Assembly (NCBI GenBank): GCA_000002445.1
Contig: CP000069.1
Location: 960,001 to 1,024,000 of the forward strand
Direction: 5' to 3'
Length of the DNA: 64,000 nt
Origin: Trypanosoma brucei
Lineage: Eukaryota
Positions 846 through 62,856 of the stretch are shown here, piece by piece. Both the position numbers and the translations under genes were made by a program. The stretch's first letter is position 1, and each line of letters opens with the position of its first letter. The notes under the pieces are model-generated. The model searched no databases and had not been told where the DNA came from. It saw only the letters and a list, made by a program, of their open reading frames with translations.

Positions 846-870
846 CCCTTCCCTTCCCTTCCCTTCCCTT
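846..870. repeat. (CCCTT)5 microsatellite
   Basis: cccttcccttcccttcccttccctt, read directly. Confidence 0.9.
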
Positions 871-1640: not shown

Positions 1641-1656
1641 GACGAAGTGAATTCAC

Positions 1657-2628: not shown

Positions 2629-3145
2629 TATAATTTTTTTCGAGACGAGGCGGCGGGGTGATCAATAAGACATGGTGGTTAAGGAGAAAAACAATAACAA
2701 TAAAACATAACATGTACTTCAAATTTTAAGGCCTGGTCCCGCTATAGGTGAGGAAAGAAAAATGAATATTGCTTCTTACCTCATTTGATCTTTCATATCG
2801 GTTTCAACTAGTCGACGAGTGCAGTTTTGGCAAAAACAATAAGCGAGGCAACAACAACAGCGGCAGCGGCCAGTCGCCTTTATGGTCCCCATGCTCGTGC
2901 GGAGTGTATATCATCGGCAGTGGGCAGGTCCGTAAGGAAGCAAAGCTTCAGAAGTGGAGTACACGGAACGTTTAATGTATTTTTGTCAGTTACGTATATT
3001 ATGTTAATATTGTTTGTTATTGTTAGCTGAACTCATTCATTTTTTTTTATTTACTCCCCGTCAGCAACCACCTCTTACTGAAGGAAGCGTATAAACGTAT
3101 TCATAGGTTAGAAGGGAAGTATAGAAAGGAACCTGGAAAGCAGCT

Positions 3146-4327: not shown

Positions 4328-5197
4328 CAGAATAAGGATGAGGAATGATATGTGGTTACTTGAGATTTTTTCCGCACCAAATAAAAATGCGGCACATCTC
4401 GATTACTGTTCTCTTCCACAGTCGATGGCAAACTTTCCCTTTCGGTCTATCAGTTTCTTTTTGTCCTCGTTGCGTACCGTGCTCAAGTCATATTTTTTGC
4501 ACCTGTATGATATGCGTAATATTGCTTTAAACATATGCGCTGATGAGTTTGTTGTGCACAACCGAGTAGCTGTCTCAGGTTATTTATTGTGTTTTGGACA
4601 CAACGCATTTGCTGGAGAAAATTGTTTTACTTTTCTCTTGTAGTATCAGTGAGTTTACCTCTTTTTTTGTATATATATTTTTTACTTCTTTCTATGCACA
4701 TCTAGACTCCATACGTGTGTTTGGTACTCACTTCACTATCGTTGCTAATTTCCGTTTGGGAGTTACAGCTGTACGTATCCCAGTTCTTTTTTCTTCTTTT
4801 GCTCTTCCTGGAATTGCTATGTGGAGTAATTCTTTCCTTATGCCAAGAAAATATGTGAGTTTAGTGGAGTGGACTGGAGAAAAAGAAAGGCCTCCACACA
4901 TCGCTGTAATTCATTCTTTACTTACTGTGTGCCCTGATGATTGCGAGAGTGGGAAAATCCACTATACAAAACAGTAGTTGTGTTCCGGAGCGAAAGTACT
5001 TTATATATATATGTATATATGTATTGAGACGTTGTTTAGGAGGACTTTCTCGTATCCCTATTGATTCCCCTCCCCCATCCGTGAAGATTTCCGTTGTATC
5101 CCTATCTGAAACTATTTCGTCGGTAACTTTTCGTTTTTCCACGATTACTACCATAGTTAGTGCCATATTTTAGGAAATAATAACGTCACTACTTCAG

Positions 5198-24344: not shown

Positions 24345-24836
24345 ATGATATCATTGCGGGGAAACATAGGTTTGCTTACCCGGCGGCGCCACGCCGTTAT
24401 CACTCTCCACTCTGCATTAGAGTTGTGTGGTGTCACACGTTACAAGAGTTCATTACCCAACAGCGCATTAACTGCTCGAACAGCGGAGGCCCTCTATTCC
24501 ATGGAACATTACCATAAGCAATGCCTCAATGAGGATGAGCGTCGGCAAGTCGAAGTGCAAGCTTGGGAAGAACTAATGAACCTTCCTGATGCTGCAGTGG
24601 AGGATGCGTCCTCAAGCGTTGTCGCCGACATTCTCGGTTCCTGGTGCTATTTTTCGAAATTTTGGGACCGAGGAATACAAGGCCCCAACCCATCAGACAG
24701 TCCTGAAGAAAACAACGTCAAAAAGGTCAATGTTCCTCTAATCGCAAGGGAATTCCACCGACCCCATTCCCCATCAACAGTTGACACGGCACCACCACCC
24801 CGCGCGAATCCACTAGATGAAGTGCTGGACTTTTGA
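24345..24836 (+). CDS. Hypothetical small protein (163 aa), the last ORF of the plus-strand array
   Basis: ORF only. No motifs recognised. The start codon is uncertain. Confidence 0.3.
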   Translation: MISLRGNIGLLTRRRHAVITLHSALELCGVTRYKSSLPNSALTARTAEALYSMEHYHKQCLNEDERRQVEVQAWEELMNLPDAAVEDASSSVVADILGSWCYFSKFWDRGIQGPNPSDSPEENNVKKVNVPLIAREFHRPHSPSTVDTAPPPRANPLDEVLDF

Positions 24837-26999: not shown

Positions 27000-27150
27000 T
27001 GCGCAAGGAGACGGTACGTATGTGGCACAGAATCCGAGCACATTTGGATGATTGGTTACCGACTGGCTCCCAAGTGTCCCAACAGCCCCTCTTACTTGTT
27101 TGTTCTCGGGAGATCGGAAAATCCTGTGGTCGGGAGAATACAGCGATGTG
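27000..27150 (-). mobile_element. Degenerate ingi-related (DIRE-like) fragment on the minus strand. It is 5'-truncated inside the AP-endonuclease region and may extend further toward about 26.5 kb.
   Basis: The reverse complement of 27100-27150 reads cacatcgctgtattctcccgaccaca..., matching the internal ingi site catcgctgtattctcccgataccgaccaccatcaca at 27762 in copy 1. Downstream similarity (gagaacaaacaag against gagacgacacagac) decays quickly. Confidence 0.4.
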
Positions 27151-27376
27151 CCCTGACGATGCCAGCCACCTCAACGTGGTGTCAGAGTCCAGTACCCCGT
27201 CTCATCGGGGGAAGCCAAGAGCCAGCAGCGTTCCTTTCATGGGCAACACTGCTGTGCTCCGGCTACGGCATCATACAGCACAGGGATCAGCAGCGTCTTG
27301 CTGGGACACCGTTTTTCATTTGTCGGTCCATGGGCACGTGCCAGCGTGTCATCAGCAGTATATCATCCACACTAAG

Positions 27377-30300
27377 ATGCTGCTGTCCGGTGATGTGGAA
27401 GAGAATCCCGGCCCGTCGTTGCGCGGGATGCAGTGGAACTGCGCCGGGCTATCTCAAGGAAAGAGATTAGCATTAGCACGTCGGCATACATCCCACCAAA
27501 ACGCACATTCACGGCAAATGACTTAGATACGCTTCTGACGACCGACGGTGCCCAGCTCATCGGTGCAGACGCTAACGCACACGCGTTGGTATGGGATCGC
27601 GCGAGCCCACCAAATACCAAGGGTGAAACCCTCACACAGTGGTGCATTGACAACCAGCTTCTGGTCTGTAACACTGGTGAGTGCACCAGGTACGCCCGCC
27701 ACCACGTGAAGCCCACCCCTGATATGACGCTATCAAGGAATTTCACAGTGTCCAGGTGGACATCGCTGTATTCTCCCGATACCGACCACCATCACATATT
27801 TTTCGACGTTATTGTTGGAGACGACACAGACTCACTGAGCTGCCCGCGGCTTTGAAAACCCATGTACGCATAGCTAAAAGCTGACTGGAGGAATTTCCGT
27901 CTCAAGGTTGACGAGTTCTGCAGAAAAATTGGTAGAGAATAACGTCAACACCCTGAAACAGAAATTGAGCTCCGCCATCCGCATTGCGACGAAGGTCTCC
28001 GTTCCCCGTGGCTGCAGAGCAACGCCACCACATGGGACACCTGCGCTCGCGAAACTCGATGAAGAGATCGCTGGATACGGACCCTCTCACCGAAGGGAAA
28101 AGTTGGTAGCCACGCGTAAGCAGATCCTGGACCGCACCACAAAGAAGAGATGGAGCACGCTATGCTCCAGACTTGCGGTGTCAGACCGCTGCAGTTGGCA
28201 CATTGTCAAGAAAGTATACGCGCCACGACCACTAACCACACCGGCTGTACTTGTTGATAACGCGGCCATCACGGACTACCGTCAAGCTGAGAGGTTCAGT
28301 AAACTGTACTCATCCCGCGCAAGAAGGCACCCCGACTCACACCCACCGGCACCCATAAAGACGATAGCGAGTGAGTTTAGTCTCATCACGATAGCTGAAC
28401 TACGGAGATCGATCAAACTGCTACCGAGTGGATCCGCAGCCGGACCTGATTGCTTATACAACGAGGCATTACAACATCTCGGTAGAGCAGCGCTGAATGT
28501 TGTGCTGAGGCTATTCAATGAGAGCCTACGAATGGGAGCCGTGCCGTCTGCATGGAAGACCGGTGTTATCATCCCCATCCTGAAGGCCAGAAAAAAGGAA
28601 GAGTACCCCGAATCTTACAGGCCTGTGACGCTCACGAGCTGTCTCTGCAAAGTCATGGAGCGCATAATTGCCGCAAGGTTTAGAGACACTGTTGAGTCCC
28701 AGCTGACGCCGCAGCAATCAGGCTTTCGCCCCGGATGCTCACCGCTCGAACAACTCCTGCACGTCTGCGCTGCCCTCTGCCGTCCCACGCACCAATATCG
28801 TACAGGTGCTGTATTCGTTGACTACGAGAAGGCATTTGACACAGTAGACCACGACAAAATTGCGGGGGAAATGCACAGAATGAAGGTATCACCCCACATT
28901 GTGAAGTGGTGCGTATCATTTCTGAGTAACCGAACTGGTAGAGTGAGATTCAAGGAGAAACTTTCCAGAAGCAGAACATTTGAGCGAGGAGTGCCACAAG
29001 GAACTCTCCTTGGCCCAATCATGTTCATAATTGTCATGAACTCGTTGAGCCAACGCCTTGCAGAAGTGCCGTTGCTGCAGCACGGATTCTTTGCAGACGA
29101 CCTGACGCTACTTGCGAGGCACACAGAGGGATGTCATCAACCAGACGCTACAATGCGGCCTAAACGTGGTGTTACAGTGGTCAAAAGAGTACTTCATGTC
29201 TATCAATGTAGCGAAAACAAAGTTCACACTCTTCGGGTTCACAGAGCGCCACCCCCTTACATTACAACTGGAAGGCGAAAGAATAGGAGCTGACAGGACA
29301 CCGAAGCTTCTAGGAGTAACATTCCAGTGTCTGCAAGGGATGGCAACACATGCGGCCGAAACGAGACGCAAGATGGACTTCCGACTACTGCAGATAACAG
29401 TCATCTCAGCTTCTATATGGGGGCCAATACGACAAGTGCTGAGAGCTTTTTATCTAGCACTCGTACAGGCACGCACCATGTGTGGCATTGAGGTATGGTA
29501 CTGGGACGCTTCGGAACGAAGTCGCGACCTCCTTGCAGCAGCACAACACAAAGCCAGTCGAATCATAGCTGGCATACCGCATGGGACGCGCGAAGAGGAC
29601 TCTCTGCTGGAAGCAAACCTCCTGCCACTCAAGACGACCACTCTTGTGCGCAGCATGAAATTCATGCTGATGTGTGAGTCACGAGGCGGATGTTTGCGGC
29701 GCAGTGCTGAGGAAGTATACCACAGCAAACACCCAGTCAGAGCCCTACACTCCCGCATCATGCGGTCCTACCCCCACCTCCGCATTGAGCCACGCGAGCA
29801 CCCACTAGAGACATCGACGCTCCGCCACAGCTGCCGACCGATATTTCACACGCAGATAAAGCCTGTGTGCGCTGATGACCCTGACAATGTCAAAAGGGAG
29901 GCTTCCGAAAAGTGATTGCACGGCATTTTTCACGGAGGGGGAAGGAGCCACCGCGGCGAGTGCACTACGAATTGTGGACTGATGGATCCGTGCCCCTCGG
30001 TGAGAAGTCCGGATCAACTGCCCTGCTCTATAGAAACAACACGCTGATTTGTGCACCCGAGACCGGAGCAGGGGAACTTTCATGCAGTTACAGAGCGGAA
30101 TGCGTAGCATTAGAGATAGGACTGTAACGGCTGCTGAAATGGCTTCTGGCATACAGAAGCACACCGAGCAGGTTGTCCATCTTCTCTGACTCGCTGTCAA
30201 TGTTAACAGCACTGCAGACGGGCCCCCTATCCGTAACGGACCCAATTCTGAGACGACTATGGAGGCTTCTGCTTCAAGTTGAGAGAAGGAAGGTGCGTAT

Positions 30301-31883
30301 CCGACTGCAATTTGCGTCCGGCCATTGTGGCGTGAAACGGAATGAGGTTTGCGATGAAATGGCCAAAAAGGCCGCTGATTTACCACAGTTGCGAGACGCA
30401 TGGATCCCCGACATCATTGCTTATGCGAAGCGAGTGCTTAGGTCGGAAGAAGTCTATGAGAACACTCATAGGTTTGGTATCACGGGCAACCACTTTCCAA
30501 CAAAACATAAAGAAGAACTGACGGGGGAAGAAGAAACGGCACTGGCACGCTTTCGGGTTGGAGTCTTCAAGATACTATGGATGGATGTTGCGAAAGATCA
30601 ACCCGAGTGTGCCTCCACAGTGCCGATGGTGCAACCCGCAACATGCAGCAATAGGGCCAACAATACAAACAGTCCCAACTGTTGCGACACGCACTCTTCA
30701 GAGAACCTCCGAACCAACTAAATGTACGGAATGTGATGCCACATACCAATACCTGTCGAATGCTGTAACGCACATGGTAAACAAACATGGCTTTGTGCGA
30801 GCTGATGCCCTCCGGAGGATCAAATACGGCGATGCAACACCCGCAGTGGACATCCTCCCGGAGCCCTCTCCAGTGGTGGCGATCGTTCCTCTACCATCGA
30901 GCATACGAGTCCTGATGAGACCGCAGGTGCTTTACTGTACCCTCTGTGCCTCCAAATTCGCAGTGCCAGGCCGACTATTACACCATCTTAGAACAATACA
31001 TGGCATAGGCAGCGGTAGTTGCCGCGTGAAAAGGGGGCGAGAGAGCGAGGACTCAGTGCAAGGAGATGGTAGCGTCCCAGCAGCCCCAGCCCCTCAGGAA
31101 ACACGGAAGCTGCCGTTTCAATGTGACCTGTGCGAGGCGAGCTTCAGTACACGTTCTTCCCTGTCACTACACAAGAAATTCAAGCATAAGAGCATAGTGA
31201 CGGAGGACGGTACCGTGGTGTTGGTGCAATTCCCTCGTAAGCGTGCCCGTGAGGGAAACGTTGACGTCCCGGGGAAAGGCGAGGTGCAGTGTGGTGTGTG
31301 TCAAAAAGTGCTCAGTTGCAGGGACTCCCTCATCCGACACTGTAAGGCTTTCCACAAAGGTGAGGGAGTCGAGCTTAAATGCAGCAAAAGCACAAAATTG
31401 CGTGCCACTGATTCCCCGCATACAAATGCATCCATGTTGGTGCGCCCGACATGCGGAAGGCAGTGTGCTAGCAAAACTGGCCTCACCCTACATCAAAAGA
31501 AGATGCACGGTATGAAGGTAGAGCGCGCTGTTACCAGCCAACGCGGCGACTGCGAAGAAACGTCGCTGCACCTGATGAGCTGTCCCAGTTTGAAGGAGTT
31601 ACGTGTCAGGCTTGCAGTAGAAGGTGAGTGTGTGCAGGATATATGTTTTTCCAAAAGGCTGGCGCAATTTCTCATTGCGGTTGAACGGAGCCGGCCGCAG
31701 GTGAAGTCCTCCCCCAATGTAACAGTCATACAACCCACTCTCCCTTCTGCAACTTCCCAGCTTATTGCCGAGTGTGGAGCTAGCAGGAAAAGCACCGGAC
31801 GCTGGAATAGTCCAGACACCCTCAGAGACAGAGGGGGTATGCAGTTAACAAGCAACAGAAACAGAAAGAGGGAGAGAGAATAA
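27377..31883 (+). pseudogene. ingi polyprotein ORF (APE-RT-RNase H-ZnF) disrupted by multiple frameshifts
   Basis: The ORF track shows successive fragments 26600-27526, 27433-27855, 27908-29293, 29112-29915, 30173-30721 and 30558-31883 in different frames. Together they reconstitute one retrotransposon polyprotein. Confidence 0.75.
27392..27415 (+). other. 2A-like co-translational ribosome-skipping motif (D-V-E-E-N-P-G-P) at the N-terminus of the ingi ORF
   Basis: The codons gat gtg gaa gag aat ccc ggc ccg encode ...MLLSGDVEENPGPSLRGMQWNCAGL... The motif lies about 12 codons upstream of the APE domain start (QWNCAGL) and conforms to the canonical D(V/I)ExNPGP. Confidence 0.8.
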
Positions 31884-33611
31884 TAAACAAATAACAAAAT
31901 TCAAAACAAAAGGATTGCTAATTGACATTTTTGTGAGAGTCCGGGGTGGGAGGCTTCTCGCCCCGTCTGCTGTATTCCGTTCAACTGCGGAGCTACAACA
32001 AAACGTTATAGAGAGGGTGTGTTAGGATGAATAATAAAGGGAGACTCTGCCACAGTCGCCAGACCGATAGCATCTCAGGGCTCTACGGTGATGGCTGATG
32101 GCCGTGCCAGTGGGGGGAAACTCTCACGAAGGCACGAAAAAAAAAATTTTTAAAGTCTATAGGCAAACCTCTACCCTGATATGGCTAATGTTATCCGCTA
32201 AGAGATTTTGTTCGTGTCAGTATAAGCAGATGTCTCATGCCACAAGAGAATTTACGTATGGTTTTTGCTGCAAACAAACCAAATGATATACTTAAGTTTA
32301 CGTGTTTTCTTTCTTATAATTGAAATAGATGACATTATTTTGTCCATCTTTTTTTCCTTTTCTACTGACCAATCGCCTTCCGTATTTCTCATCCTGATGT
32401 CGAATATTATTCCTGTTTCCTCATTTTTTATTTCAGTAAACAGCAATTTTGCACAGCTATCACTCGACAAAAAATATGTTAATAATCTGAATAGTAATGA
32501 TTATATTATTATAAGAGAACACATTCATGTACGCCACTACTTCTCCCAGTAACAACGATAATCATACATAACATTGTATGTGCGTGTTCACGCGTTTCTC
32601 GTACATTATCATTTCTTTTGTTGTAATGTCCCTGTTTGAGTCATCTCAATTGCGAGTTATTATAACTCTGGTTGTCCCTCCACTATCTTTGTTTGGGGGT
32701 GGTGGGGTGTGTTAATGCTCTTTGCATGTGGAGTGGGGATAGAGGAATAGGGCCCTGCTTATGTGAAGAGTGTGTGAAGTAAGGATGATGAGAGTTACTT
32801 ATAAGGTGTGTAATTATTTTGCGTGTGGAAAATGGTCTAAATGAGGGTGCTGAGAGGGAAGGTCTCTAATTATTCTGGGACTGTTTTGTGTGCTAGCAAC
32901 TAACATAATATTCCATCATGCCAACGTATAATGAAAGGTTTCATTAATAAGCTTAATTTTCTGAGATGGTGTTTTGAAACCCCAATTGTTACCTTTACTA
33001 GTGTGTTGTTTAGGAAAATGGAACGCAAGAAGCTGTGTATACATATAGAGAGGGAAAGAAAGAGTATTTCCAGTACGCGTATGAAAGGAAGAGGATATGC
33101 TGAATAGGGCTCAGTAGCAGAGTTGTGTTCATTGGACAAGGGTAACACGTGCGTGCAAATTAGGCACGTGATGTGCCAGCGAATTAAGCTATTAAAGTAG
33201 CAACTGGAGCCAATGGAGGACTTGGAAAAATAGCATAACGTGAAGGTGCAAGTACTCATGAGGAGAATGGATAAGCTTGTTATTGATGGAAGGTGCAGCG
33301 CAGCTCAGTTGGAGGTGCGGTTACTTGGCATGATGGTTAGTGAAGTTTTTTTTTTTTGAATCAAGAAGTTAGGGAAAATGGGGTAACCAACAGGAAAACA
33401 CCTGTGAGGGAACTCAATGTTGATATACGGCTTGAGGGGAGGGTTCCATACAACTCTGTGTGCTTTGGGATGTGCTTCCTCTTTTGTTGAATGCTGCTGT
33501 AGTTGGTTTGTGTCAGGCACTTATTAATTTCGATATTTTTATGTGTCTGTTTGTTGTGTCTGTCAATAACAACAACAATTGTTATGACAAGCTTTAGTTT
33601 TCTCCTCCTTT

Positions 33612-35019
33612 TTGGCTGATGAACGTATAGGCAAAATCACGATGAGGCACGAAGCAGTGTTTGCCATTGGGATGCTTGCGGCTGTTTTATCTCCTTCCTC
33701 TCAGGGTGATTTGAATTCTTTCAAATGGAGGACTGAGATGTTTGACTGGAGCCAGTTTGCGGATGATGTGGATGAAAAAGAAAGGCACCACAACTTTGGA
33801 GAGTTCGAGACACTGCAAGATTTACAGAATTACGCAGGCAGAGGCCCCACAGCCTTCCTTCAAGAATCGTGAAAAGGAAGGAGAGATTCTGAAGAATTTG
33901 GAGGAAATGGTCAGTGAGGCAGAAGCTGTTGGTGGCAATAAGGGCTCGAACAATTCATCTAACAGCACGACAGCATATCAGGAGATGAAGAAACTATTTG
34001 AGAAGGCGAAAAAGCTTAAGGAGCAGATAGAGGTGAATAGGACAAAAGCCTTGAATGCAAGTCGCTCTGCTGAAGAAAATATGTTGAAAGCTGTGTATGG
34101 CGATGCTGTGGATGTGGCAAGAAACGAGAATAAAACTCTGGAGGAAGCCATGAGAGGAAACAAATCACTGCTGTTCAATAGTGTCTACAATGCAGACACG
34201 AGCTGCGGTTCTTTTGGAGACAAGTTAGTCGGAAAGACTCTAATTAATGACTTTTTCTGCCTATGTGTGGGAGAGGCTGTTGATTTAATTAAGAAGTTCG
34301 AAAAGCCAAATAATCATGTATATAAATTAGATGTTCCCGATAGCGATGATAACAATATATATAATGGGTTAAATTGTCCTTGTAAGGATGAAATAAGGAG
34401 ACCTAAAAATGGTAGTTGGACTATGATGGCTGCACATTGTAAAGGTGACAGCAGCAAGTGCAACCCCGACAATATAAGATACAACCATACTGAGGCATGG
34501 GATGTGATTAGTAGAGCTTGCGTGTACAAGAATATTGCATCTAATGTGAAAACCCTAAAGAGTGCATTAGCTCAGTTTGATGCGTTAGTGAATTTGGAAC
34601 AGGGCGGACATCAGGTGAAAGGTATTCTTGGTTATGTGAAAACATTAAACAACGAAAATCGCACATGCACAGGTCACACTGCTGGGTTTACATGCGTCAG
34701 TTACAACTACACACTTAAAAATGGTGGAATTCCATGGTACAACCGCCTCACTAACGCCACCAAGGAACTACAAGAAATGGCGAAGTATGCCAAAGAGGCT
34801 GACAGCCATCTTCATGAGTTGGAAGAATTCCAACATGAGGCAGAGGAAATATTTCTTGAAGTGAAGCTAGGTGGTGATGCAGAGCTATGGAAGAGTAGCC
34901 GAGGTAGGGATGATGGTGAAAGTGGCAATGCTGAAGTAAATAATAATGGATTCAACTATATAGATATAACAACTGATATTTTTACATTAATGATTCTATA
35001 TCTTTTTTGTATATTTTAG
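33612..35019 (+). pseudogene. VSG-like / VSG-related surface glycoprotein pseudogene, split by a frameshift between the signal peptide and the body
   Basis: ORF 33612-33872 provides a signal peptide (MRHEAVFAIGMLAAVLSPSSQG). The frame-shifted ORF 33742-35019 encodes a K/E-rich helical N-terminal region and a Cys-patterned middle (CLCVGE, NCPCKDE, AAHCKGDSSKCNPD, RTCTGHTAGFTCVSY). It ends in a short hydrophobic tail (DIFTLMILYLFCIF) like a GPI-addition signal. The two ORFs overlap in different frames. Confidence 0.45.
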
Positions 35020-35249: not shown

Positions 35250-37255
35250 TTTTTTTTGAAAGCTCGCTGTCGATGCTACGACATCTTATGGGAGCTGAAA
35301 CTTTATGTAACTTTTTTTTATTGTGTATCATGCTGCGTTGTCAGTGTACTATTAGCTTGTTACTATCTGTGTCGGATAAAGCTATATTTGTCTTGTTAAT
35401 GACTTTTATAGGTTGGGTCGGAACTAGTTGTAAAAGACAAGTAGGCGTTACTGAAATTTTAATTTTCAACCATTCGCTATGGCTGTAAAAGCGTACTTGC
35501 GAGTGAAAGGCTTCTGCCTCTTTTTTTTTTTTTTGAGCCAAACGTAGAAGAGCATAGTGGAGTTTACAATTTTCATTCAGAGGAGTGGGCAGCTTTTTGT
35601 GTAGTCTATTCTCCTTTATAGGGGTGTTCCTCTCGAATGAAGAAAGTACATGTTGGAAGAGAATGAGGGGTTTCTCAATTTCTAGGAGGAATTGTGCAAG
35701 GTTCTTGGTGAACACTATCTTCTGCATATTTTTGCCCTCAAGCCCGAAGTAACTGCGGAGCACTTTAGGCTTGAGCGCGCGAGTATGTGGGTGGGATTCT
35801 CTTCGCATTCGTTGGAGTGTGTATGTTTCCTTTCAACGCAGATTTCATGTTTTTGATGGCGATGTATAGATGAGCCTGATGTTGATTGGGACGTCTTATT
35901 TCGGTTTACGAACGTGAAGTGTAGATGAAACCCTCTGACGTTGAAGCTCCGGAGCGGTGGTGGAGATTCTTTTGCTACGGAGAAGGGATGCTGTCTATGC
36001 ATTCCCCCGAAGTGCTCCATCAGGCTGTCTTTTGATACATGCGTATGACGGCATTGCGTGCAACAGGTGTCATTTAGACCTATAGTTACCGTGTTCCAAA
36101 TGAGGGATACCTCTTGTTCTGTGATGGAACGGCTCCGTTTTGTACCAGCGTTACTATCCAGGGGATGGCCTCTGCGGTGTTGAATCTTGGTGCTTGGTGT
36201 TGTTCCCCCTTTTGATTGTGATACAAAGCTGCATTGCCTGCATTGTAGCGGCTCAGATGTGCCTACTGGGTCGTGCACTGGATGCCCTCTCGTTTCCGTC
36301 GCTCGGGAGCCCTTTGTTGGAATACTTGCATTCTCTTCGAGTTCCCATTGCCTTTTTATTCCTCGCGACCCCGTTTGCGGTTGTACTTCGCAGTATTTCA
36401 TCCCGTGACTTATCACTAGTCCAATTTACGTGTGAAATATATAGCTGCGAGGTCCATATATCGCTTCATTTTCTCCAGAGGTTGAACTGGTGGTGTTATC
36501 ACTTTGTTCATTGGTGTTGGGTTGATGCGGTCGGTTTTCACTTTGTGTGCCTATCCGTTTCTCCACCACTGGAATGATGTGCTAAAGCTGACCTCTGCTC
36601 TTTATTCCATGACGCATTGTCGAGTCTCTCTGCTCAATCAATTTGAACCCACAGATTCCTCACTGGAGTGTGTTTTTTATCATATTCAGTGTGGATTATG
36701 GTTCCGCCAGTGTGGGGTGGAAAGGGACTGCCGTTGGTCATGTAGTGTTTCTGTGGCCTGCGCAATGTTAGTACACCTGCGCTCTTGGATTGAAAAAGCC
36801 ACGTTCTGCGCAAACCCATTTGTGCTGTTTGATATTTTCATCTTCTTTCCGCTTCTCCGACATTTCATCGTCTAACTTTCTCGTTTTGCCGTGAAGGCAT
36901 CGAGTTTTGTGCCATGTGAGCCCTCCTTTGTTTCCATAGGATTTGTTACAGACACTGAGCACATACGACTTCGGTGGAGGGGGCAGGGGTTATAAGGTGA
37001 ACATTCCACATCACCGAACAGCAGCATCTTAGTGTGGATGATATACTGCTGATGGCACGCTGGCACGTGCCCAGCGAACGACAAATGAAAAACGGTGTCC
37101 CAGCAAGACGCTGCTGATCCCTGTGTTGTATGATGCCGAGGCCGGAGCACAGCAGAGTTCCCCATGAAAGGAACGCTGCTGGCTCTTGGTTTCCCCCGAT
37201 GATGCGGGGTACTGGACTCTGGCACCACGTGGAGGTGGCCGGCATCGCCAGAGGG
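35250..37255 (-). mobile_element. Old degenerate ingi-related element (DIRE) on the minus strand with a large internal deletion. Its 5' Pr77/2A end lies at 37255 and its 3' T-rich end near 35250.
   Basis: The minus-strand ORF 36872-37258 encodes HLHVVPESSTPHHRGKPRASSVPFMGNSAVLRPRHHTTQGSAASCWDTVFHLS...MLLFGDVE, about 88 percent identical to copy 1 residues upstream of its 2A motif. The reverse complement of 37241-37255 is the Pr77 start (ccctctggcgatgcc). The region 36885-37000 is a weak reverse-complement match to the APE start. Minus ORFs 35715-36416 and 35341-35808 keep ingi C-terminal features (PLQCRQCSF..., CTQCRHTHVSKDSLMEHFGGMH, NLAQFLLEIEKP against KRLAQFLIAVERSRP). Poly(T) runs sit at about 35090-35260. 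Confidence 0.5.
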
Positions 37256-37402
37256 CATCGCTGTATTCTCCCGATACCGATCACCATCACATATTTTTCG
37301 ACGTTATCGTTGGAGACGACACAGACTCACTGAGCTGCCCGCGGCTTTGAAAACCCATGCACGCATAGCTAAAAGCTGACTGGAGGAATTTCCGTCTCAA
37401 GG

Positions 37403-39775
37403 TTGACGAGTTCTGCAGAAAAATTGGTAGAGAAGAATGTCAACACCCTGGAACAGAAATTGAGCTCCGCCATCCGCATTGCGACGAAGGTCTCCGTTCC
37501 CCGTGGCTGCAGAGCAACGCCACCACATTGGACACCTGCGCTCGCGAAACTCGATGAAGAGATCGCTGGATACGGACCCTCTCACCGAAGGGAAAAGTTG
37601 GTAGCCACGCGTAAGCAGATCCTGGACCGCACCACAAAGAAGAGATGGAGCACGCTATGCTCCAGACTTGCGGTGTCAGACCGCTGCAGTTGGCACATTG
37701 TCAAGAAAGTATACGCGCCACGACCACTAACCACACCGGCTGTACTTGTTGATAACGCGGCCATCACGGACTACCGTCAAGCTGAGAGGTTCAGTAAACT
37801 GTACTCATCCCGCGCAAGAAGGCACCCCGACTCACACCCACCGGCACACATAAAGACGATAGCGAGTGAGTTTAGTCTCATCACGATAGCTGAACTACGG
37901 AGATCGATCAAACTGCTACCGAGTGGATCCATAGCCGGACCTGATTGCTTATACAACGAGGCACTGCAACATCTCGGTAGAGCAGCGCTGAATGTTGTGC
38001 TGAGGCTATTCAATGAGAGCCTACGAATGGGAGCCGTGCCGTCTGCATGGAAGACCGGTGTTATCATCCCCATCCTGAAGGCCAGAAAAAAGGAAGAGTA
38101 CCCCGAATCTTACAGGCCTGTGACGCTCACGAGCTGTCTCTGCAAAGTCATGGAGCGCATAATTGCCGCAAGGTTTAGAGACACTGTTGAGTCCCAGCTG
38201 ACGCCGCAGCAATCAGGCTTTCGCCCCGGATGCTCACCGCTCGAACAACTCCTGCACGTCTGCGCTGCCCTCTGCCGTCCCACGCACCAATATCGTACAG
38301 GTGCTGTATTCGTTGACTACGAGAAGGCATTTGACACAGTAGACCACGACAAAATTGCGGGGGAAATGCACAGAATGAAGGTATCACCCCACATTGTGAA
38401 GTGGTGCGTATCATTTCTGAGTAACCGAACTGGTAGAGTGAGATTCAAGGAGAAGCTTTCCAGAAGCAGAACATTTGAGCGAGGAGTGCCACAAGGAACT
38501 GTCCTTGGCCCAATCATGTTCATTATTGTCATGAACTCGTTGAGCCAACGCCTTGCAGAAGTGCCGTTGCTGCAGCACGGATTCTTTGCAGACGACCTGA
38601 CGCTACTTGCGAGACACACAGAGAGGGATGTCATCAACCAGACGCTACAATGCGGCCTAAACGTGGTGTTACAGTGGTCAAAAGAGTACTTCATGTCTAT
38701 CAATGTAGCGAAAACAAAGTTCACACTCTTCGGGTGTATAGGGCGCCACCCCCTTACATTGCAACTGGACGGCGAAAGGATAGGAGCTGACAGGACACCG
38801 AAGCTTTTAGGAGTAACATTCCAGTGTCTGCAAGGGATGGCAACACATGCGACCGAAACGAGACGCAAGATGGACTTCCGACTACTGCAGATAACAGTCA
38901 TCTCAGCTTCTATATGGGGGCCAATACGACAAGTGCTGAGAGCTTTTTATCTAGCACTCGTACAGGCACGCACCATGTGTGGCATTGAGGTATGGTACTG
39001 GGACGCTTCGGAACGAAGTCGCGACCTCCTTGCAGCAGCACAACACAAAGCCAGTCGAATCATAGCTGGCATACCGCATGGGACGCGCAAAGAGGACTCT
39101 CTGCTGGAAGCAAACCTCCTGCCACTCAAGACGACCACTCTTGTGCGCAGCATGAAATTCATGCTGATGTGTGAGTCACGAGGCGGATGTTTGCGGCGCA
39201 GTGCTGAGGAAGTATACCACAGCAAACATCCAGTCAGAGCCCTACATTCCCGCATCATGCGGTCCTACCCCCACCTCCGCATTGAGCCACGCGAGCACCC
39301 ACTAGAGACATCGACGCTCCGCCACAGCTGCCGACCGATATTTCACACGCAGATAAAGCCTGTGTGCGCTGATGACCCTGACGATGTCAAAAGGGAGGCT
39401 CCCGAAAAGTGGATTGAACGGCATTTTGCACGGAGGGGGAAGGAGCCACCGCGACGAGAGCACTACGAATTGTGGACTGATGGATCCGTGCCCCTCGGTG
39501 AGAAGTCCGGATCAACTGCCCTGCTCTATAGAAACAACACGCTGATTTGTGCACCCAAGACCGGAGCAGGGGAACTCTCATGCAGTTACAGAGCGGAATG
39601 CGTAACATTAGAGATAGGACTGCAACGGCTGCTGAAATGGCTTCCGGCATACAGAAGCACATCGAGCAGGTTGTCCATCTTCTCTGACTCGCTGTCAATG
39701 TTAACAGCACTGCAGACAGGCCCCCTAGCCGTAACGGACCCAATTCTGAGACGACTATGGAGGCTTCTGCTTTAA
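37403..39775 (+). pseudogene. ingi copy 2 RT-RNase H ORF (790 aa), terminated by a premature stop shared with copy 3
   Basis: RT motifs (FFADD) and RNase H (ELWTDGSVPLGEKSGSTALLY). The ORF ends ...RRLWRLLL at a TAA where copy 1 has CAA (Q). Confidence 0.8.
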
Positions 39776-40055
39776 GTTCAGAGAAGGAAGGTGCGTATCC
39801 GACTGCAATTTGCGTCCGGCCATTGTGGCGTGAAACGGAATGAGGTTTTCGATGAAATGGCCAAAAAGGCCGCTGATTTACCACAGTTGCGAGACGCATG
39901 GATCCCCGACATCATTGCTTATGCGAAGCGAGTGCTTAGGTCGGAAGAAGTCCATGAGAACACTCATAGGTTTGGTATCACCTGCAACCACTTTCCAACA
40001 AAACATAAAGAAGAACTGACGAGGGAAGAGGAAACGGCACTGGCACGCTTTCGGG

Positions 40056-41519
40056 TTGGAGTCTTCAAGATACTATGGATGGATGTTGCGAAAGATCAAC
40101 CCGAGTGTGCCTCCACAGTGCCGATGGTGCAACCCGCAACATGCAGCAATAGGGCCAACAATACAAACAGTCCCAACTGTTGCGACACGCACTCTTCAGA
40201 GAACCTCCGAACCAACCAAATGTACGGAATGTGATGCCACATACCAATACCTGTCGAATGCTGTAACGCACATGGTAAACAAACATGGCTTTGTGCGAGC
40301 TGATGCCCTCCGGAGGATCAAATACGGCGATGCAACACCCGCAGTGGACATCCTCCCGGAGACCCCTCCAGTGGTGGCGATCGTTTCTTTACCATCGAGC
40401 ATACGAGTCCTGATGAGACCGCAGGTGCTTTACTGTACCCTCTGTGCCTCCAAATTCGCAGTGCCAGGCCGACTATTACACCATCTTAGAACAATACATG
40501 GCATAGGCAGCGGTAGTTGCCGCGTGAAAAGGGGGCGAGAGAGCGAGGACTCAGTGCAAGGAGATGGTAGCGTCCCAGCAGCCCCAGCCCCTCAGGAAAC
40601 ACGGAAGCTGCCGTTTCAATGTGACCTGTGCGAGGCGAGCTTCAGTACACGTTCTTCCCTGTCACTACACAAGAAATTCAAGCATAAGAGCATAGTGACG
40701 GAGGACGGTACCGTGGTGGTGTTGCAATTCCCTCGTAAGCGTGCTCGTGAGGGAAACGTTGACGTGCCGGGGAAAGGCGAGGTGCAGTGTGGTGTGTGTC
40801 CAAAAGTGCTCAGTTGCAGTGACTCCCTCATCCGACACTGTAAGGCTTTCCACAAAGGTGAGGGAGTCGAGCTTAAATGCAGCAAAAGCACAAAATTGCG
40901 TGCCACTGATTCCCCGCATACAAATGCATCCATGTTGGTGCGCCCGACATGCGGAAGGCAGTGTGCTAGCAAAACTGGCCTCACCCTACATCAAAAGAAG
41001 ATGCACGGTATGAAGGTAGAGCGCGCTGTTACCAGCCAACGCGGCGACTGCGAAGAAACGTCGCTGCACCTGATGAGCTGTCCCGGTTTGAAGGAGTTAC
41101 GTGTCAGGTTTGCGGTAGAAGGTGAGTGTGTGCAGGATATATGTTTTTCCAAAAGGCTGGCGCAATTTCTCATTGCGGTTGAACGGAGCCGGCCGCAGGT
41201 GAAGTCCTCACCTAATGTAACAGTCATACAACCCACTCTCCCTTCTGCAACTTCCCAGCTTATTGCTGAGAGTGGAGCTAGCAGGAAAAGCACCGGACGC
41301 AGGAATAGTCCAGACACCCTCAGAGAGGGGGTATGCAGTCAACAAGCAACAGAAACAGAAAGAGGGGGAGAGAATAATAAACAAAGAACAAAATTCAAAA
41401 CAAAAGGATTGCTAATTGACATTTTTGTGAGAGTCCGGGGTGGGAGGCTTCTCGCCCCATCTGCTGTATTCCGTTTAACTGCGGAACTACAACAAAACGT
41501 TATAGAGAGGGTGTGTTAG
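40056..41519 (+). pseudogene. ingi copy 2 C-terminal C2H2 zinc-finger ORF (487 aa)
   Basis: Multiple C2H2 fingers (CTECDATYQYLSNAVTHMVNKHGF, CTLCASKFAVPGRLLHHLRTIHG, CDLCEASFSTRSSLSLHKKFKHK, CGVCPKVLSCSDSLIRHCKAFH). It is frameshifted relative to the upstream ORF. Confidence 0.75.
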
Positions 41520-41568
41520 GATGAATAATAAAGGGAGACTCTGCCACAGTCGCCAGACCGATAGCATC

Positions 41569-42750
41569 TCAGGGCTCTACGGTGATGGCTGATGGCCGTG
41601 CCAGTGGGGGGAAACTCTCACGAAGGCACGAAGAAAATTCCAAAAAAAAAAAAATAGAGAAGCATATATCCTGCACACACTCACCTTCTACCGCAAACCT
41701 GACACGTAACTCCTTCAAACCGGGACAGCTCATCAAGTGCAGCGACGTTTCTTCGCAGTCGCCGCGTTGGCTGGTAACAGCGCGCTCTACCTTCATACCT
41801 TGCATCTTCTTTTGATGTAGGGTGAGGCCAGTTTTGCTAGCACACTGCCTTCCGCATGTCGGGCACACCAACATGGATGTGTTTGTATGCGGGGAATCAG
41901 TGGCACACAATTTTGTGTTTTTGCTGCATTTAAGCTCGACTCCCTCACCTTTGTGGAAAGCCTTACAGTGTCGGATGAGGGAGTCCCTGCAACTGAGCAC
42001 TTTTTGGCACACACCACACTGCACCTCGCCCTTCCCCGGGACGTCAACGTTTCCCTCACGGGCACGCTTACGAGGGAATTGCACCAACACCACGGTACCG
42101 TCCTCCGTCACTATGCTCTTATGCTTGAATTTCTTGTGTAGTGACAGGGAAGAACGTGTACTGAAGCTCGCCTCGCACAGGTCACATTGAAACGGCAGCT
42201 TCCGTGTTTCCTGAGGGGCTGGGGCTGCTGGGACGCTACCATCTCCTTGCACTGAGTCTTCGTTCTCTCTCCAACTTTTCACGCGGCAACTACCGCTACC
42301 TATGCCATGTATCGTTTGAAGGTGGTGTAATAGTCGGCCTGGCACTGCGAATTTGGAGGCACAGAGGGTACAGTAAAGCACCTGCGGTCTCATCAGGACT
42401 CGTATGCTCGATGGTAAAGAAACGATCGCCACCACTGGAGGGGGCTCCGGGAGGATGTCCACTGCGGGTGTTGCATCGCCGTATTTTATCTTTCGAAGGG
42501 CATCAGCTCGCACAAAGCCATGTTTGTTTACCATGTGCGTTACAGCATTCGACAGGTATTGGTATGTGGCATCACATTCCGTACATTTGGTTGGTTCGGA
42601 GGTTCTCTGAAGAGTGCGTGTCGCAACAGTTGGGACTGTTTGTATTGTTGGCCCTATTGCTGCATGTTGCGGGTTGCACCATCGGCACTGTGGAGGCACA
42701 CTCGGGTTGATCTTTCGCAACATCCATCCATAGTATCTTGAAGACTCCAA
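41569..42750 (-). pseudogene. ingi copy 3 C2H2 zinc-finger ORF, C-terminally truncated at the breakpoint
   Basis: It matches the copy 1 and copy 2 ZnF ORFs up to ...VQDICFS, then continues into unrelated sequence (the copy 2 poly(A) region read in reverse). Confidence 0.7.
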
Positions 42751-45662
42751 CCCGAAAGCGTGCCAGTGCCGTTTCCTCTTCCCTCGTCAGTTCTTCTTTA
42801 TGTTTTGTTGGAAAGTGGTTGCACGTGATACCAAACCTATGAGTGTTCTCATGGACTTCTTCCGACCTAAGCACTCGCTTCGCATAAGCAATGATGTCGG
42901 GGATCCATGCGTCTCGCAACTGTGGTAAATCAGCGGCCTTTTTGGCCATTTCATCGAAAACCTCATTCCGTTTCACGCCACAATGGCCGGACGCAAATTG
43001 CAGTCGGATACGCACCTTCCTTCTCTGAACTTAAAGCAGAAGCCTCCATAGTCGTCTCAGAATTGGGTCCGTTACGGCTAGGGGGCCTGTCTGCAGTGCT
43101 GTTAACATTGACAGCGAGTCAGAGAAGATGGACAACCTGCTCGATGTGCTTCTGTATGCCGGAAGCCATTTCAGCAGCCGTTGCAGTCCTATCTCTAATG
43201 TTACGCATTCCGCTCTGTAACTGCATGAGAGTTCCCCTGCTCCGGTCTTGGGTGCACAAATCAGCGTGTTGTTTCTATAGAGCAGGGCAGTTGATCCGGA
43301 CTTCTCACCGAGGGGCACGGATCCATCAGTCCACAATTCGTAGTGCTCTCGTCGCGGTGGCTCCTTCCCCCTCCGTGCAAAATGCCGTTCAATCCACTTT
43401 TCGGGAGCCTCCCTTTTGACATCGTCAGGGTCATCAGCGCACACAGGCTTTATCTGCGTGTGAAATATCGGTCGGCAGCTGTGGCGGAGCGTCGATGTCT
43501 CTAGTGGGTGCTCGCGTGGCTCAATGCGGAGGTGGGGGTAGGACCGCATGATGCGGGAATGTAGGGCTCTGACTGGATGTTTGCTGTGGTATACTTCCTC
43601 AGCACTGCGCCGCAAACATCCGCCTCGTGACTCACACATCAGCATGAATTTCATGCTGCGCACAAGAGTGGTCGTCTTGAGTGGCAGGAGGTTTGCTTCC
43701 AGCAGAGAGTCCTCTTTGCGCGTCCCATGCGGTATGCCAGCTATGATTCGACTGGCTTTGTGTTGTGCTGCTGCAAGGAGGTCGCGACTTCGTTCCGAAG
43801 CGTCCCAGTACCATACCTCAATGCCACACATGGTGCGTGCCTGTACGAGTGCTAGATAAAAAGCTCTCAGCACTTGTCGTATTGGCCCCCATATAGAAGC
43901 TGAGATGACTGTTATCTGCAGTAGTCGGAAGTCCATCTTGCGTCTCGTTTCGGTCGCATGTGTTGCCATCCCTTGCAGACACTGGAATGTTACTCCTAGA
44001 AGCTTCGGTGTCCTGTCAGCTCCTATCCTTTCGCCGTCCAGTTGCAATGTAAGGGGGTGGCGCCCTATACACCCGAAGAGTGTGAACTTTGTTTTCGCTA
44101 CATTGATAGACATGAAGTACTCTTTTGACCACTGTAACACCACGTTTAGGCCGCATTGTAGCGTCTGGTTGATGACATCCCTCTCTGTGTGTCTCGCAAG
44201 TAGCGTCAGGTCGTCTGCAAAGAATCCGTGCTGCAGCAACGGCACTTCTGCAAGGCGTTGGCTCAACGAGTTCATGACAATAATGAACATGATTGGGCCA
44301 AGGACAGTTCCTTGTGGCACTCCTCGCTCAAATGTTCTGCTTCTGGAAAGCTTCTCCTTGAATCTCACTCTACCAGTTCGGTTACTCAGAAATGATACGC
44401 ACCACTTCACAATGTGGGGTGATACCTTCATTCTGTGCATTTCCCCCGCAATTTTGTCGTGGTCTACTGTGTCAAATGCCTTCTCGTAGTCAACGAATAC
44501 AGCACCTGTACGATATTGGTGCGTGGGACGGCAGAGGGCAGCGCAGACGTGCAGGAGTTGTTCGAGCGGTGAGCATCCGGGGCGAAAGCCTGATTGCTGC
44601 GGCGTCAGCTGGGACTCAACAGTGTCTCTAAACCTTGCGGCAATTATGCGCTCCATGACTTTGCAGAGACAGCTCGTGAGCGTCACAGGCCTGTAAGAAT
44701 CGAGGTACTCTTCCTTTTTTCTGGCCTTCAGGATGGGGATGATAACACCGGTCTTCCATGCAGACGGCACGGCTCCCATTCGTAGGCTCTCATTGAATAG
44801 CCTCAGCACAACATTCAGCGCTGCTCTACCGAGATGTTGCAGTGCCTCGTTGTATAAGCAATCAGGTCCGGCTATGGATCCACTCGGTAGCAGTTTGATC
44901 GATCTCCGTAGTTCAGCTATCGTGATGAGACTAAACTCACTCGCTATCGTCTTTATGTGTGCCGGTGGGTGTGAGTCGGGGTGCCTTCTTGCGCGGGATG
45001 AGTACAGTTTACTGAACCTCTCAGCTTGACGGTAGTCCGTGATGGCCGCGTTATCAACAAGTACAGCCGGTGTGGTTAGTGGTCGTGGCGCGTATACTTT
45101 CTTGACAATGTGCCAACTGCAGCGGTCTGACACCGCAAGTCTGGAGCATAGCGTGCTCCATCTCTTCTTTGTGGTGCGGTCCAGGATCTGCTTACGCGTG
45201 GCTACCAACTTTTCCCTTCGGTGAGAGGGTCCGTATCCAGCGATCTCTTCATCGAGTTTCGCGAGCGCAGGTGTCCAATGTGGTGGCGTTGCTCTGCAGC
45301 CACGGGGAACGGAGACCTTCGTCGCAATGCGGATGGCGGAGCTCAATTTCTGTTTCAGGGTGTTGACATTCTTCTCTCTACCAATTTTCCTGCAGAGCTC
45401 GTCAACCTTGAGACGGAAATTCCTCCAGTCAGCTTTTAGCTATGCGTGCATGGGTTTTCAAAGCCGCGGGCAGCTCAGTGAGTCTGTGTCGTCTCCAACA
45501 ATAACGTCGAAAAATATGTGATGGTGGTCGGTATCGGGAGAATACAGCGATGTCCACCTGGACACTGTGAAATTCCTTGATAGCGTCATATCAGGGGTGG
45601 GCTCCACGTGGTGGCGCGCGTACCTGGTGCACTCACCAGTGTTACATACCAGAAGCTGGTTG
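41663..45662 (-). mobile_element. ingi copy 3 (minus strand), truncated at both ends. The 5' end lies in the APE domain at about 45662 and the 3' end at an internal site in the ZnF region at about 41663, so there is no 3' tail or poly(A).
   Basis: It is the reverse complement of copy 2 at about 98 percent identity and shares the same premature stop (...RRLWRLLL). The RT ORF is 43031-45346, followed by 42572-43015 and 41569-42750 on the minus strand. Homology to copy 2 stops at gatatatg (reverse complement of 41663-41670), whereas copy 2 continues there with tttttccaaaaggctggcg.... Confidence 0.85.
43031..45346 (-). pseudogene. ingi copy 3 RT-RNase H ORF (771 aa)
   Basis: Nearly identical to the copy 2 ORF. 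An extra GA near the 5' end (tagagagaagaatg against tagagaagaatg) shifts the first 19 codons out of frame. Confidence 0.8.
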
Positions 45663-47452: not shown

Positions 47453-48388
47453 TTACCCGTGGGGAGGGGTGTCCCGACGCGCAGTTGTCGGCGCCGGGCA
47501 GGCTGCCCTTTTCGGTGGAGTGTCGGCTTGCGCAATGCGCACAGGCAGGCAAAAACAAGGACCACAATTCGCATGGCTAAACTTTCCCCAGTCTGCCAAA
47601 TCAGTGGCTGAGTGAAGAAACTGTGCTTCCTCAATTTTGGGGCATACATCGCTTACTTCGGCTTCTGGTTTGTATAACTGTGAAAATTTCCGCGTTCGTT
47701 TTTCTAATAGACCAAGATCACGTGCCACCTTTGCCTCCTGGCGTATTGCAGCAAGATGTGCGGCATTTGCTTCCTCCACTCGCCTTATGATGCGGTGCTT
47801 CTCGTTAATCAACCTTTTAAGTTCCCTTTCTGCGTCTGCATGTGCGGCCTGGGATGAGAGTCCCTCATTTTCCTCCTGCACAACCGAGTCATATGCGTCG
47901 CATTCCTTAATCTCGTTTTTCAAAGTCTCCAGCTTGAGTCGCAGCTGCCCAACTTCCATACTAAGACTATGTATGGAGTGCTTCACTTCGAGGTATTCCC
48001 GTCTTTGCAACGCTTCTGTGGGTGATTTCTTACCAACTGTCCCCTTGCCCGTATTGAAGCACGCACCCATACCATTTATTTTGATGATCGCCTCTTTCCT
48101 CTGTGAACGCGCGGCCTCAAGTCGCAATTCCAGTTTAACCACTTCACCGTAGTCAAGCACATCAGTTGCCATGGAGGCAATCTGATCCCCCAACAGCGCC
48201 TTCTCTTCAAGCAGTTTGCCCAGCAATTCTTCAAGATACCGAAGTTCCTCCTCATCTTCGCTAAGCTCCACATTCCGACGTACTTGTTTTGCATGAGCGA
48301 ATCTTCTGGATGAGGGCCGTGCCGATTCAGCTGCTTTCCCAACTTTAACCAAAGGGGCTGTTCCCGGTCTCTTGTTCTTTAGTGTCAT
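47453..48388 (-). CDS. Hypothetical coiled-coil protein (311 aa)
   Basis: First long ORF of the minus-strand array. It is rich in heptad-like E/K/L segments (LRLEAARSQRKEAIIKI, LKLETLKNEIKE). The start is uncertain. Confidence 0.5.
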   Translation of the reverse strand: MTLKNKRPGTAPLVKVGKAAESARPSSRRFAHAKQVRRNVELSEDEEELRYLEELLGKLLEEKALLGDQIASMATDVLDYGEVVKLELRLEAARSQRKEAIIKINGMGACFNTGKGTVGKKSPTEALQRREYLEVKHSIHSLSMEVGQLRLKLETLKNEIKECDAYDSVVQEENEGLSSQAAHADAERELKRLINEKHRIIRRVEEANAAHLAAIRQEAKVARDLGLLEKRTRKFSQLYKPEAEVSDVCPKIEEAQFLHSATDLADWGKFSHANCGPCFCLPVRIAQADTPPKRAACPAPTTARRDTPPHG

Positions 48389-62820: not shown

Positions 62821-62856
62821 TATATATATACATATATATATATTTATACATATATG
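62821..62856. repeat. Imperfect (TA)n / TATACA low-complexity tract
   Basis: tatatatatacatatatatatatttatacatatatg, read directly. Confidence 0.8.

Follow-up and report, generated by a model that had tools for sequence, protein, structure and literature searches.

The window analysed here, 64,000 nucleotides (nt) of Trypanosoma brucei DNA (assembly GCA_000002445.1, contig CP000069.1, positions 960,001 to 1,024,000), carries three copies of the retrotransposon ingi, two of which are arranged tail to tail as a long inverted repeat. The window belongs to chromosome 6 of T. brucei brucei TREU927: eight of its flanking open reading frames (ORFs) match the annotated proteins AAZ11890-AAZ11904 exactly, and there are three more. 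Genes in this range encode cyclosome subunit 1, GPI mannosyltransferase I, a calpain-like peptidase, MALSU1 and a protein kinase. The inverted ingi pair is located exactly where a plus-strand and a minus-strand gene array converge. Coordinates below are those of the window. The three copies are the following.

27148..32147, plus strand: ingi copy 1, with full ends, an internal deletion of ~245 bp near ingi position 331 and a broken ORF.
37253..41655, plus strand: ingi copy 2, which starts at ~611 owing to 5' truncation and keeps its 3' tail and A13; same sense as the left (plus-strand) array.
41657..45662, minus strand: ingi copy 3, truncated at both ends (~4507 to 504); sense to the right (minus-strand) array.

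All three copies are defective. The assignment of these elements to ingi in the first-pass annotation, which was made from the letters alone, is borne out by their domains and by their closest relatives. Copies 2 and 3 have a reverse transcriptase domain (RVT_1, E=7e-44 and 1e-43, respectively) and carry zf-C2H2 domains in their 3' ORFs (Pfam); among named homologues, a T. brucei reverse transcriptase comes closest (92% identity), followed by ingi-type reverse transcriptases of T. congolense and T. vivax and a 'Tbingi protein'. No AP-endonuclease domain was found by Pfam in the ORFs of copies 2 and 3, both of which begin, at ~611 and ~504, past the 5' signature (the RIME-A half, ~253 nt). Copies 2 and 3 are truncated, defective members of the Tb-ingi family. 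Copy 1 is 98.1% identical to copy 2, which covers ingi 611-4996 at this level, and 97.8% identical to copy 3. At the 3' end, copy 2 terminates in A13 and copy 1 in ~A10; copy 3 lacks the last ~500 nt together with the poly(A).

Copies 2 and 3 match each other in inverted orientation as follows.

37253..41149, plus strand: left arm of the inverted repeat.
41657..45555, minus strand: right arm of the inverted repeat.
41150..41656, plus strand: spacer of 507 nt, consisting of the copy 2 3' tail (ingi ~4506-5008) and A13 (41643-41655).

Self-BLAST aligned 37256-41149 with 45552-41657 over 3,896 bases at 98.9% identity (41 mismatches and one 2-nt gap), and a pairwise count of differing columns with MAFFT gave 44 in 3,899. 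A 3.9-kb match at this level cannot be chance. A separate repeat search also recovered the pair, so that all three methods agree with the first-pass description of two near-identical tail-to-tail ingi copies. The arm length of ~3.9 kb given there holds as well; the inner ends lie ~15 bp nearer the centre, and the spacer measures 507 nt, not ~530. As had been proposed, the spacer is the copy 2 3' tail ending in poly(A). Beyond the right arm, copy 3 continues for a further 107 nt, to 45662, and matches copy 1 there.

The differences between the arms are distributed non-uniformly. The central 2,858 bp contain only 4 of them (99.86% identity), whereas the other 1,039 bp contain 40 (96.2%; Fisher p=2.6e-19). 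The near-identical core and the premature stop codons are placed as follows.

37452..40309, plus strand: near-identical core in copy 2, the putative gene-conversion tract, with its longest perfect run at 38808-39981 (1,174 bp).
42497..45354, minus strand: near-identical core in copy 3, partner of 37452-40309.
39773..39775, plus strand: premature TAA of copy 2, in the RNase H region of the ORF.
43031..43033, minus strand: premature TAA of copy 3.

The cores lie 2,187 bp apart, a distance made up of the 507-nt spacer and the divergent inner arms. Comparison with copy 1 points to copy 3 as the patched copy, because copy 2 is uniformly ~98.4% identical to copy 1 (98.42% in the core and 98.46% in the inner arm), whereas copy 3 is not uniform: it is 99.86% identical to copy 2 in the core but 96.09% in the inner arm, and the corresponding values relative to copy 1 are 98.42% and 96.21%. 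The site patterns among the three copies comprise 52 sites at which copies 2 and 3 agree, 30 private to copy 3 and 13 private to copy 2. Those private to copy 3 are concentrated at ingi 3665-4505, and many of them agree with ingi copies in other strains.

For comparison with those strains, orthologous loci of DAL972, IVM-t1 and T. equiperdum OVI were retrieved via the exact flanking proteins and mapped in ingi and flank coordinates. The premature TAA after ...RRLWRLLL that had been reported in both copies is indeed present in both. It results from a C-to-T change (CAA to TAA) that only copies 2 and 3 carry: CAA stands in copy 1, in the intact homologue P0052 and in all five ingi copies compared from DAL972 and IVM-t1, and P0052 has PF00075 (RNase H) over the region that holds the stop codon. 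At least 14 other derived sites are, like the TAA, common to copies 2 and 3 only. The arms are thus a mosaic, and copy 3 is probably an older, different ingi the middle of which was overwritten by copy 2-type sequence, the TAA included. To judge from the sequences, the conversion apparently proceeded from copy 2 to copy 3. It was recent, given that the 0.14% by which the cores diverge is far below the flank divergence from DAL972 and IVM-t1 (1.8-1.9%) and similar to that from T. equiperdum OVI (0.2-0.35%).

RIME copies show a median divergence of 4% from their consensus (PMC3820030), and the ~4% divergence of the arm ends is at the level typical of unrelated ingi or RIME copies, which makes arm identity unusable for dating a duplication. 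Counting arm mismatches had been suggested for this purpose; the count is available (44 columns), but no date follows from it since the arms are mosaic. Part of the two copies, the private TAA included, does have a very recent common origin; the related proposal that one derives from the other, in the sense of a single inverted duplication that dispenses with independent retrotransposition does not agree with the non-uniform differences or with the copy 3 orthologues of other strains.

DAL972, IVM-t1 and, as far as its contigs reach, OVI share with TREU927 the junction between the left flank and copy 1 as well as the ~245-bp deletion in copy 1, which was defined against a full-length DAL972 copy (L002) and is a useful structural marker of orthology. 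The junction between copy 3 and the right flank, with the 5' truncation at 504, is also kept in DAL972, IVM-t1 and OVI, the OVI contig ending inside copy 3. The conservation of both junctions implies that the outer inverted pair, copy 1 (plus) and copy 3 (minus), is older than these lineages. In DAL972 and IVM-t1, the copy 3 orthologue has a full 3' tail with poly(A), and no copy 2 adjoins it. The comparison with other strains that the first-pass annotation called for therefore recovers copies 1 and 3, but not the tail-to-tail arrangement with copy 2, in DAL972 and IVM-t1.

Between the conserved junctions, the interior of the locus is different in each assembly examined. In TREU927, copy 1 is followed by a 4.8-kb segment with a VSG_B ORF, an inverted ingi head, copy 2 and the joint between A13 and copy 3 (4507..504). 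In DAL972, a plus-strand copy cut at ~3961 is joined to the T10 tail of a full-length minus-strand copy, after which come a VSG 3' fragment and the copy 3 orthologue with its complete tail; this T10|~3961 joint, located within one de novo contig, is the mirror image of the TREU927 joint. The DAL972-specific 2.3-kb interior (L002 ~17177-19483) showed no similarity to the window or to IVM-t1 and, by eye, is a VSG C-terminal and 3'UTR fragment.

In IVM-t1, a plus-strand ingi turns into a minus-strand ingi exactly at a 10-bp inverted microhomology in the tail, TCCGTTCAAC/GTTGAACGGA (L008 ~17576-17585), and a reverse-complement joint occurs again after a 100-N gap; this joint is either a fold-back rearrangement or a fold-back artefact of the assembly or library. 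The ingi 3' tail itself contains the 10-bp inverted repeat GTTGAACGGA ... TCCGTTCAAC, ~290 nt apart, which in copy 2 occupies 41178-41187 and 41470-41479 (9/10). The counterpart of segment 32148-35425, with the VSG_B ORF region, is inverted in IVM-t1 and located on the tail of the copy anchored to the right flank (L007 1-3763, 91-94.5% identity), and carries the distinctive short 3' end of the copy 1 tail. The inverted segment is also interrupted by a RIME with a duplication of ~10 bp. To judge by its layout, the IVM-t1 interior may be the product expected from recombination between the outer inverted ingi copies, or a mis-assembly. An assembler crossing a 5-kb inverted repeat can create the same apparent inversion, and fold-back chimeras are a known artefact.

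Across strains, positional ingi orthologues are 94-95% identical, compared with 97-99% for copies within a strain and 98-99.7% for the unique flanks. The low identity of orthologues fits rapid concerted evolution of ingi through ectopic conversion, or else chimeric assembly of repeats. The first-pass view of the repeat as a substrate for rearrangement gains indirect support from the interior that is unlike in every assembly; ingi and RIME are known to recombine and to cause rearrangements between T. brucei subspecies (PMC2854126).

The centre joint of the repeat reads A13|TAGAGAAGC, so that the poly(A) of copy 2 abuts an internal antisense site of copy 3 (~4507 in copy 1 coordinates), and no more than 1-2 nt of inverted microhomology could pair there. 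Target-primed reverse transcription characteristically leaves an element's intact 3' end and poly(A) directly against foreign DNA, and we infer that the joint originated by retrotransposition. We consider it probable, if well short of certain, that the repeat consists of two separately acquired defective ingi copies within a variable ingi/VSG island, recently homogenised by a gene conversion of ~2.9 kb. Copy 3 would be the old resident, a 5'-truncated minus-strand ingi attached to the right flank in every strain studied, and copy 2 a separate plus-strand copy of the same lineage as copy 1. Copy 2 would have been inserted in or beside copy 3 by target-primed reverse transcription, the foreign DNA in this case being antisense ingi, and the other side of this insertion would have been lost or exchanged, at the time or later. 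The recent conversion of ~2.9 kb would then have put copy 2 sequence, including the nonsense mutation, into copy 3 and left the outer ~200 bp and the inner ~840 bp of the arms at ~4% divergence.

At its 5' end, copy 2 adjoins a further piece of ingi.

37004..37256, minus strand: inverted ingi/RIME 5' head (253..1), which abuts the 5' end of copy 2 and sets the outer limit of the left arm.

The 253 nt of the ingi 5' end are carried by this head and by copy 1 and also form the 5' half of the IVM-t1 RIME; the similarity of the head stops exactly at the RIME/ingi boundary. Together with the sequence on its other side, the head could form a chimeric retroposed unit (35521-37256, minus strand) composed of T14 (35521-35534), 1.47 kb without ingi similarity and the first 253 nt of ingi/RIME (93%). 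The 1.47-kb stretch includes an ORF (35715-36416) with C2H2-like motifs and no Pfam match, and no 12-bp target-site duplication (TSD) was found for the unit. An interpretation of 35000-37003 as a degenerate ingi (DIRE) or the 3' half of a RIME found no support from tblastn, relaxed blastn or Pfam: with the ingi ORFs as queries, tblastn gave no match below 90% identity at E<=1e-3, and relaxed blastn returned only chance 11-17-mers.

The 19-mer TCGGGAGAATACAGCGATG stands directly before an ingi/RIME 5' end twice, at 27130-27148 (plus strand), where it precedes copy 1 in an RHS_N-like flank, and at 37256-37274 (minus strand), where it is the antisense of ingi 612-630 in copy 2. It is also intact within copy 1 (27761-27779, minus strand) and copy 3 (45534-45552, plus strand). 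The antisense strand of ingi thus seems to carry a copy of the motif after which ingi and RIME insert, which would favour antisense self-nesting. A duplicated junction between the head and position 611 was considered and rejected: 27130-27400 and 37004-37274 share only the 19-nt motif and the head, and the sequence upstream diverges, so that the likeness is best read as insertion at one target motif on two occasions.

The convergent strand-switch region and the VSG-like ORF within it are placed as follows.

24345..24836, plus strand: last conserved gene of the plus-strand array, the RESC7-domain protein AAZ11898.
47453..48388, minus strand: last gene of the minus-strand array, AAZ11900, which together with AAZ11898 bounds the convergent strand-switch region that holds the repeat.
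33742..35019, plus strand: ORF with a VSG_B domain (E=7e-22), between copy 1 and copy 2.

The named TREU927 genes lie on the plus strand up to 24836 and on the minus strand from 47453, that is, in two facing polycistronic arrays; long ORFs follow the same pattern, on the plus strand up to ~36 kb and on the minus strand from ~47 kb, and the cumulative GC skew is maximal at ~46-48 kb of the window. Retroelements are known to gather in strand-switch domains, such as the two ingi and a DIRE at the centromeric strand-switch of chromosome 1 (PMC1868937). A centromeric context of this kind is ruled out for the repeat because the chromosome 6 centromeric array maps elsewhere, between Tb927.6.180 and Tb927.6.190 (PMC1868937), far from the genes of the window. 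The sole tandem array detected in the window consists of three AT-rich 30-bp units (63752-63838), in the right end of the window, which has 31% G+C (62001-64000). This array recalls the ~30-bp AT-rich centromeric repeats, yet it lies far from the mapped chromosome 6 centromere. An Rfam scan of the whole window at gathering thresholds gave no match to a tRNA, a ribozyme or another family.

The VSG_B ORF lies inside this chromosome-internal strand-switch region, and its counterpart place in DAL972 is taken by the VSG C-terminal and 3'UTR-like fragment. The VSG and ingi sequences here form an interstitial island whose content varies between subspecies. To the left of copy 1, a match to RHS_N, the N-terminal domain of retrotransposon hot spot proteins (26906-27083, plus strand), belongs to an ORF that reads in frame into the copy 1 head, the textbook appearance of an RHS pseudogene into which ingi has inserted.

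The first-pass annotation held that such a quasi-palindrome can extrude cruciforms and stall replication forks. This proposal is weakly founded given the 507-nt spacer and the 2,187 bp between the near-identical cores. With this spacer, divergent inner arms and cores 2.2 kb apart, cruciform extrusion or hairpin breakage is unlikely, and from this geometry the repeat is probably fairly stable. Recombination between the ingi copies is evident from the conversion tract and from interiors that vary by strain, and conversion or inversion between the arms may continue at the DNA level.

At the RNA level, each array would read its adjoining copy in the sense direction, and the two converge at the joint; accordingly, read-through RNA from either side would fold back. 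Even the most divergent part of the arms, the innermost 150 nt on either side, pairs as RNA with z = -33 versus shuffles. A long hairpin RNA formed upon array read-through, feeding the known ingi small interfering RNA (siRNA) pathway, is plausible, as is a contribution of the locus to the ingi siRNAs. In T. brucei, ingi accounts for ~52% of siRNAs, with equal numbers of sense and antisense reads (PMC3447711). Histone H3.V is enriched at convergent regions and at ingi generally (PMC4721609, Reynolds 2016), and loss of RBP33 de-represses strand-switch and ingi transcripts (PMC4162612).

Several observations weigh against separate insertion followed by conversion. Tb-ingi elements are flanked by 12-bp TSDs and show relative site specificity (PMC3820030), and no matching 12-mers were found around copy 1, 2 or 3; a degenerate AAATTTAAGT-like match was seen between the start of the segment after the copy 1 tail and the 5' flank of copy 3. 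The lack of TSDs implies that the flanks have been exchanged or lost since insertion. Furthermore, the 3' part that copy 3 lacks does not lie beyond copy 2, where the inverted ingi/RIME head stands instead, so that a retrotransposition origin of the joint requires an extra deletion or exchange. The direction of conversion is based on three local copies only, and copies 2 and 3 could both have been converted from a fourth ingi, unseen, at another genomic site. Each comparison assembly has its weaknesses: the DAL972 contigs were ordered on TREU927, OVI breaks inside repeats, IVM-t1 comes from ~2.4x PacBio and MiSeq with reference-guided scaffolding, and the contrast between orthologues (94-95%) and copies within a strain may be inflated by chimeric repeat assembly. 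The main rival for the origin of the joint, over which we favour insertion, is a one-step inverted duplication through fold-back or a replication template switch, after which the arms diverged and the middle was re-homogenised. The TAA and the at least 14 derived sites found only in copies 2 and 3 would agree with such a duplication, A13 might anneal to the T-run at ingi 4498-4502 through a short inverted microhomology, and the IVM-t1 tail-to-tail joint at TCCGTTCAAC/GTTGAACGGA is a classic fold-back signature. However, the T-run is broken in copy 3 (CTTCTCTA), which reduces the microhomology to 1-2 nt at best, and the IVM-t1 joint may be a fold-back artefact of the library or assembly at ~2.4x PacBio. 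Copy 3 exceeds copy 2 by 107 nt at the 5' end and meets the flank at a separate junction that other strains conserve, and the inner arm of copy 2 is nearer to copy 1 (98.5%) than to copy 3 (96.1%). In place of the microhomology joint and single-age arms of a fold-back palindrome, the repeat shows minimal pairing and heterogeneous divergence, and a duplication would still require the same later conversion event. We therefore regard this scenario as possible but rather unlikely.

An assembly artefact had been raised along with the initial description; an artefact of TREU927 assembly or cloning, that is, a mis-join or expansion within repeated ingi, appears very unlikely to us. It would account for the fact that the short-read and draft assemblies all break or differ at the locus, and none of eleven junction-spanning ORF variants had an exact match in independent assemblies, although this is a weak indication that depends on identical gene calls; in addition, Tschudi et al. 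saw reason to verify other long inverted repeats by PCR (PMC3447711). Against these points stand the 44 differences between the arms, ~33 of them within 840 bp of the centre, which make the centre uniquely assemblable and Sanger reads across it unambiguous and show that a single sequence was not used for both arms, and the comparable joint of poly(A) to internal ingi inside one de novo DAL972 contig. Long inverted repeats cloned in Escherichia coli tend to be deleted, not created, which also speaks against an artefact. We further considered that the locus has been selected as a source of hairpin RNA, whereby a 3.9-kb double-stranded RNA (dsRNA) would be processed by DCL2/DCL1 into ingi siRNAs and act as a trans-silencer, with conversion maintaining the core; the sequence makes this conceivable, but we deem it improbable. 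The orientation of the copies, each sense to its array with the arrays meeting at the joint, would make RNA from either direction fold back; seven other long inverted repeats and many convergent regions give rise to AGO1-bound siRNAs (PMC3447711); and siRNAs of ingi, inverted repeats and convergent regions become more abundant when H3.V is lost (PMC4721609). On the other hand, the locus is not listed in the published siRNA tables of inverted repeats and convergent units, the chromosome 6 convergent list of which spans only 88-347 kb; the pooling of ingi reads is the probable reason. Strains do not share the exact structure, which speaks against selection for this hairpin, and dispersed ingi copies in both orientations already provide sense and antisense RNA. 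An equally doubtful extension would see here a working hairpin locus at a termination zone, where read-through yields a 3.9-kb dsRNA for the nuclear Dicer and a disproportionate share of ingi siRNAs, and recurrent conversion and flipping keep the core perfect; the strain-specific centres and the apparently inverted IVM-t1 interior would then reflect flipping, and the divergent centre would protect the DNA. Were this the case, an early-branching eukaryote would have something like a minimal master locus for transposon silencing.

Among known systems, the closest are the T. brucei inverted repeats IR1-IR7 (PMC3447711), which are likewise kilobase-scale, reside in the same genome and have a unique spacer. 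Their arms span 422-10,011 bp at 99-100% identity, all of them yield siRNAs, and the authors regarded them as a curiosity with respect to genome stability. Chromosome 6 has none of the seven, and that work pooled ingi reads apart; by contrast, the ingi pair has retrotransposon arms that are mosaic, with 98.9% identity overall, 99.86% in the 2,858-bp core and 96.2% in the remainder. Nested ingi and RIME elements at RHS hot spots (PMC2854126, PMC3820030) resemble the locus in clustering, insertion at a preferred motif, recombination and insertions or deletions between subspecies. Whereas the described ingi arrays are tandem and head-to-tail with a 12-bp TSD between the elements, here the copies are antisense and tail-to-tail, with a joint of poly(A) to internal ingi and no TSD.

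Further afield, the ampliconic palindromes of the human Y chromosome also combine inverted arms with a unique spacer, and their near-identity is kept by intrachromosomal conversion, so that identity is no simple clock. Unlike these palindromes, the ingi repeat is homogenised only in a 2.9-kb patch, consists of dead transposons and is a thousand-fold smaller. Inverted Alu or LINE pairs and fold-back palindromes of yeast and mammals are recombinogenic when close and can have joints with poly(A) or microhomology, and in such inverted pairs fragility drops steeply with spacer length and arm divergence. By this measure, a 507-nt spacer and inner arms that are 4% divergent place the ingi pair in a comparatively stable class. 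The hairpin RNA and transposon-derived endogenous siRNA loci of Drosophila and other eukaryotes similarly comprise an inverted transposon pair that would give long dsRNA if transcribed through; in contrast to those loci, the predicted ingi hairpin is not conserved between strains.

The locus is a new example of known phenomena, namely, retroelement inverted repeats, ingi recombination and siRNA-prone convergent regions, all of which are already documented in T. brucei, so that current views are not overturned. It also serves as a warning that arm identity cannot date such repeats. The variants private to copies 2 and 3, together with the unique poly(A) joint, provide sequence tags that can be sought in small-RNA and long-read data. 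If the structure is real, it offers a test case for the pace at which ingi copies are overwritten by conversion (orthologues ~5% apart, flanks 0.3-2%), for inverted retroelements driving inversion polymorphism at transcription-termination zones, and for the contribution that one hairpin locus may make to the abundant ingi siRNAs.

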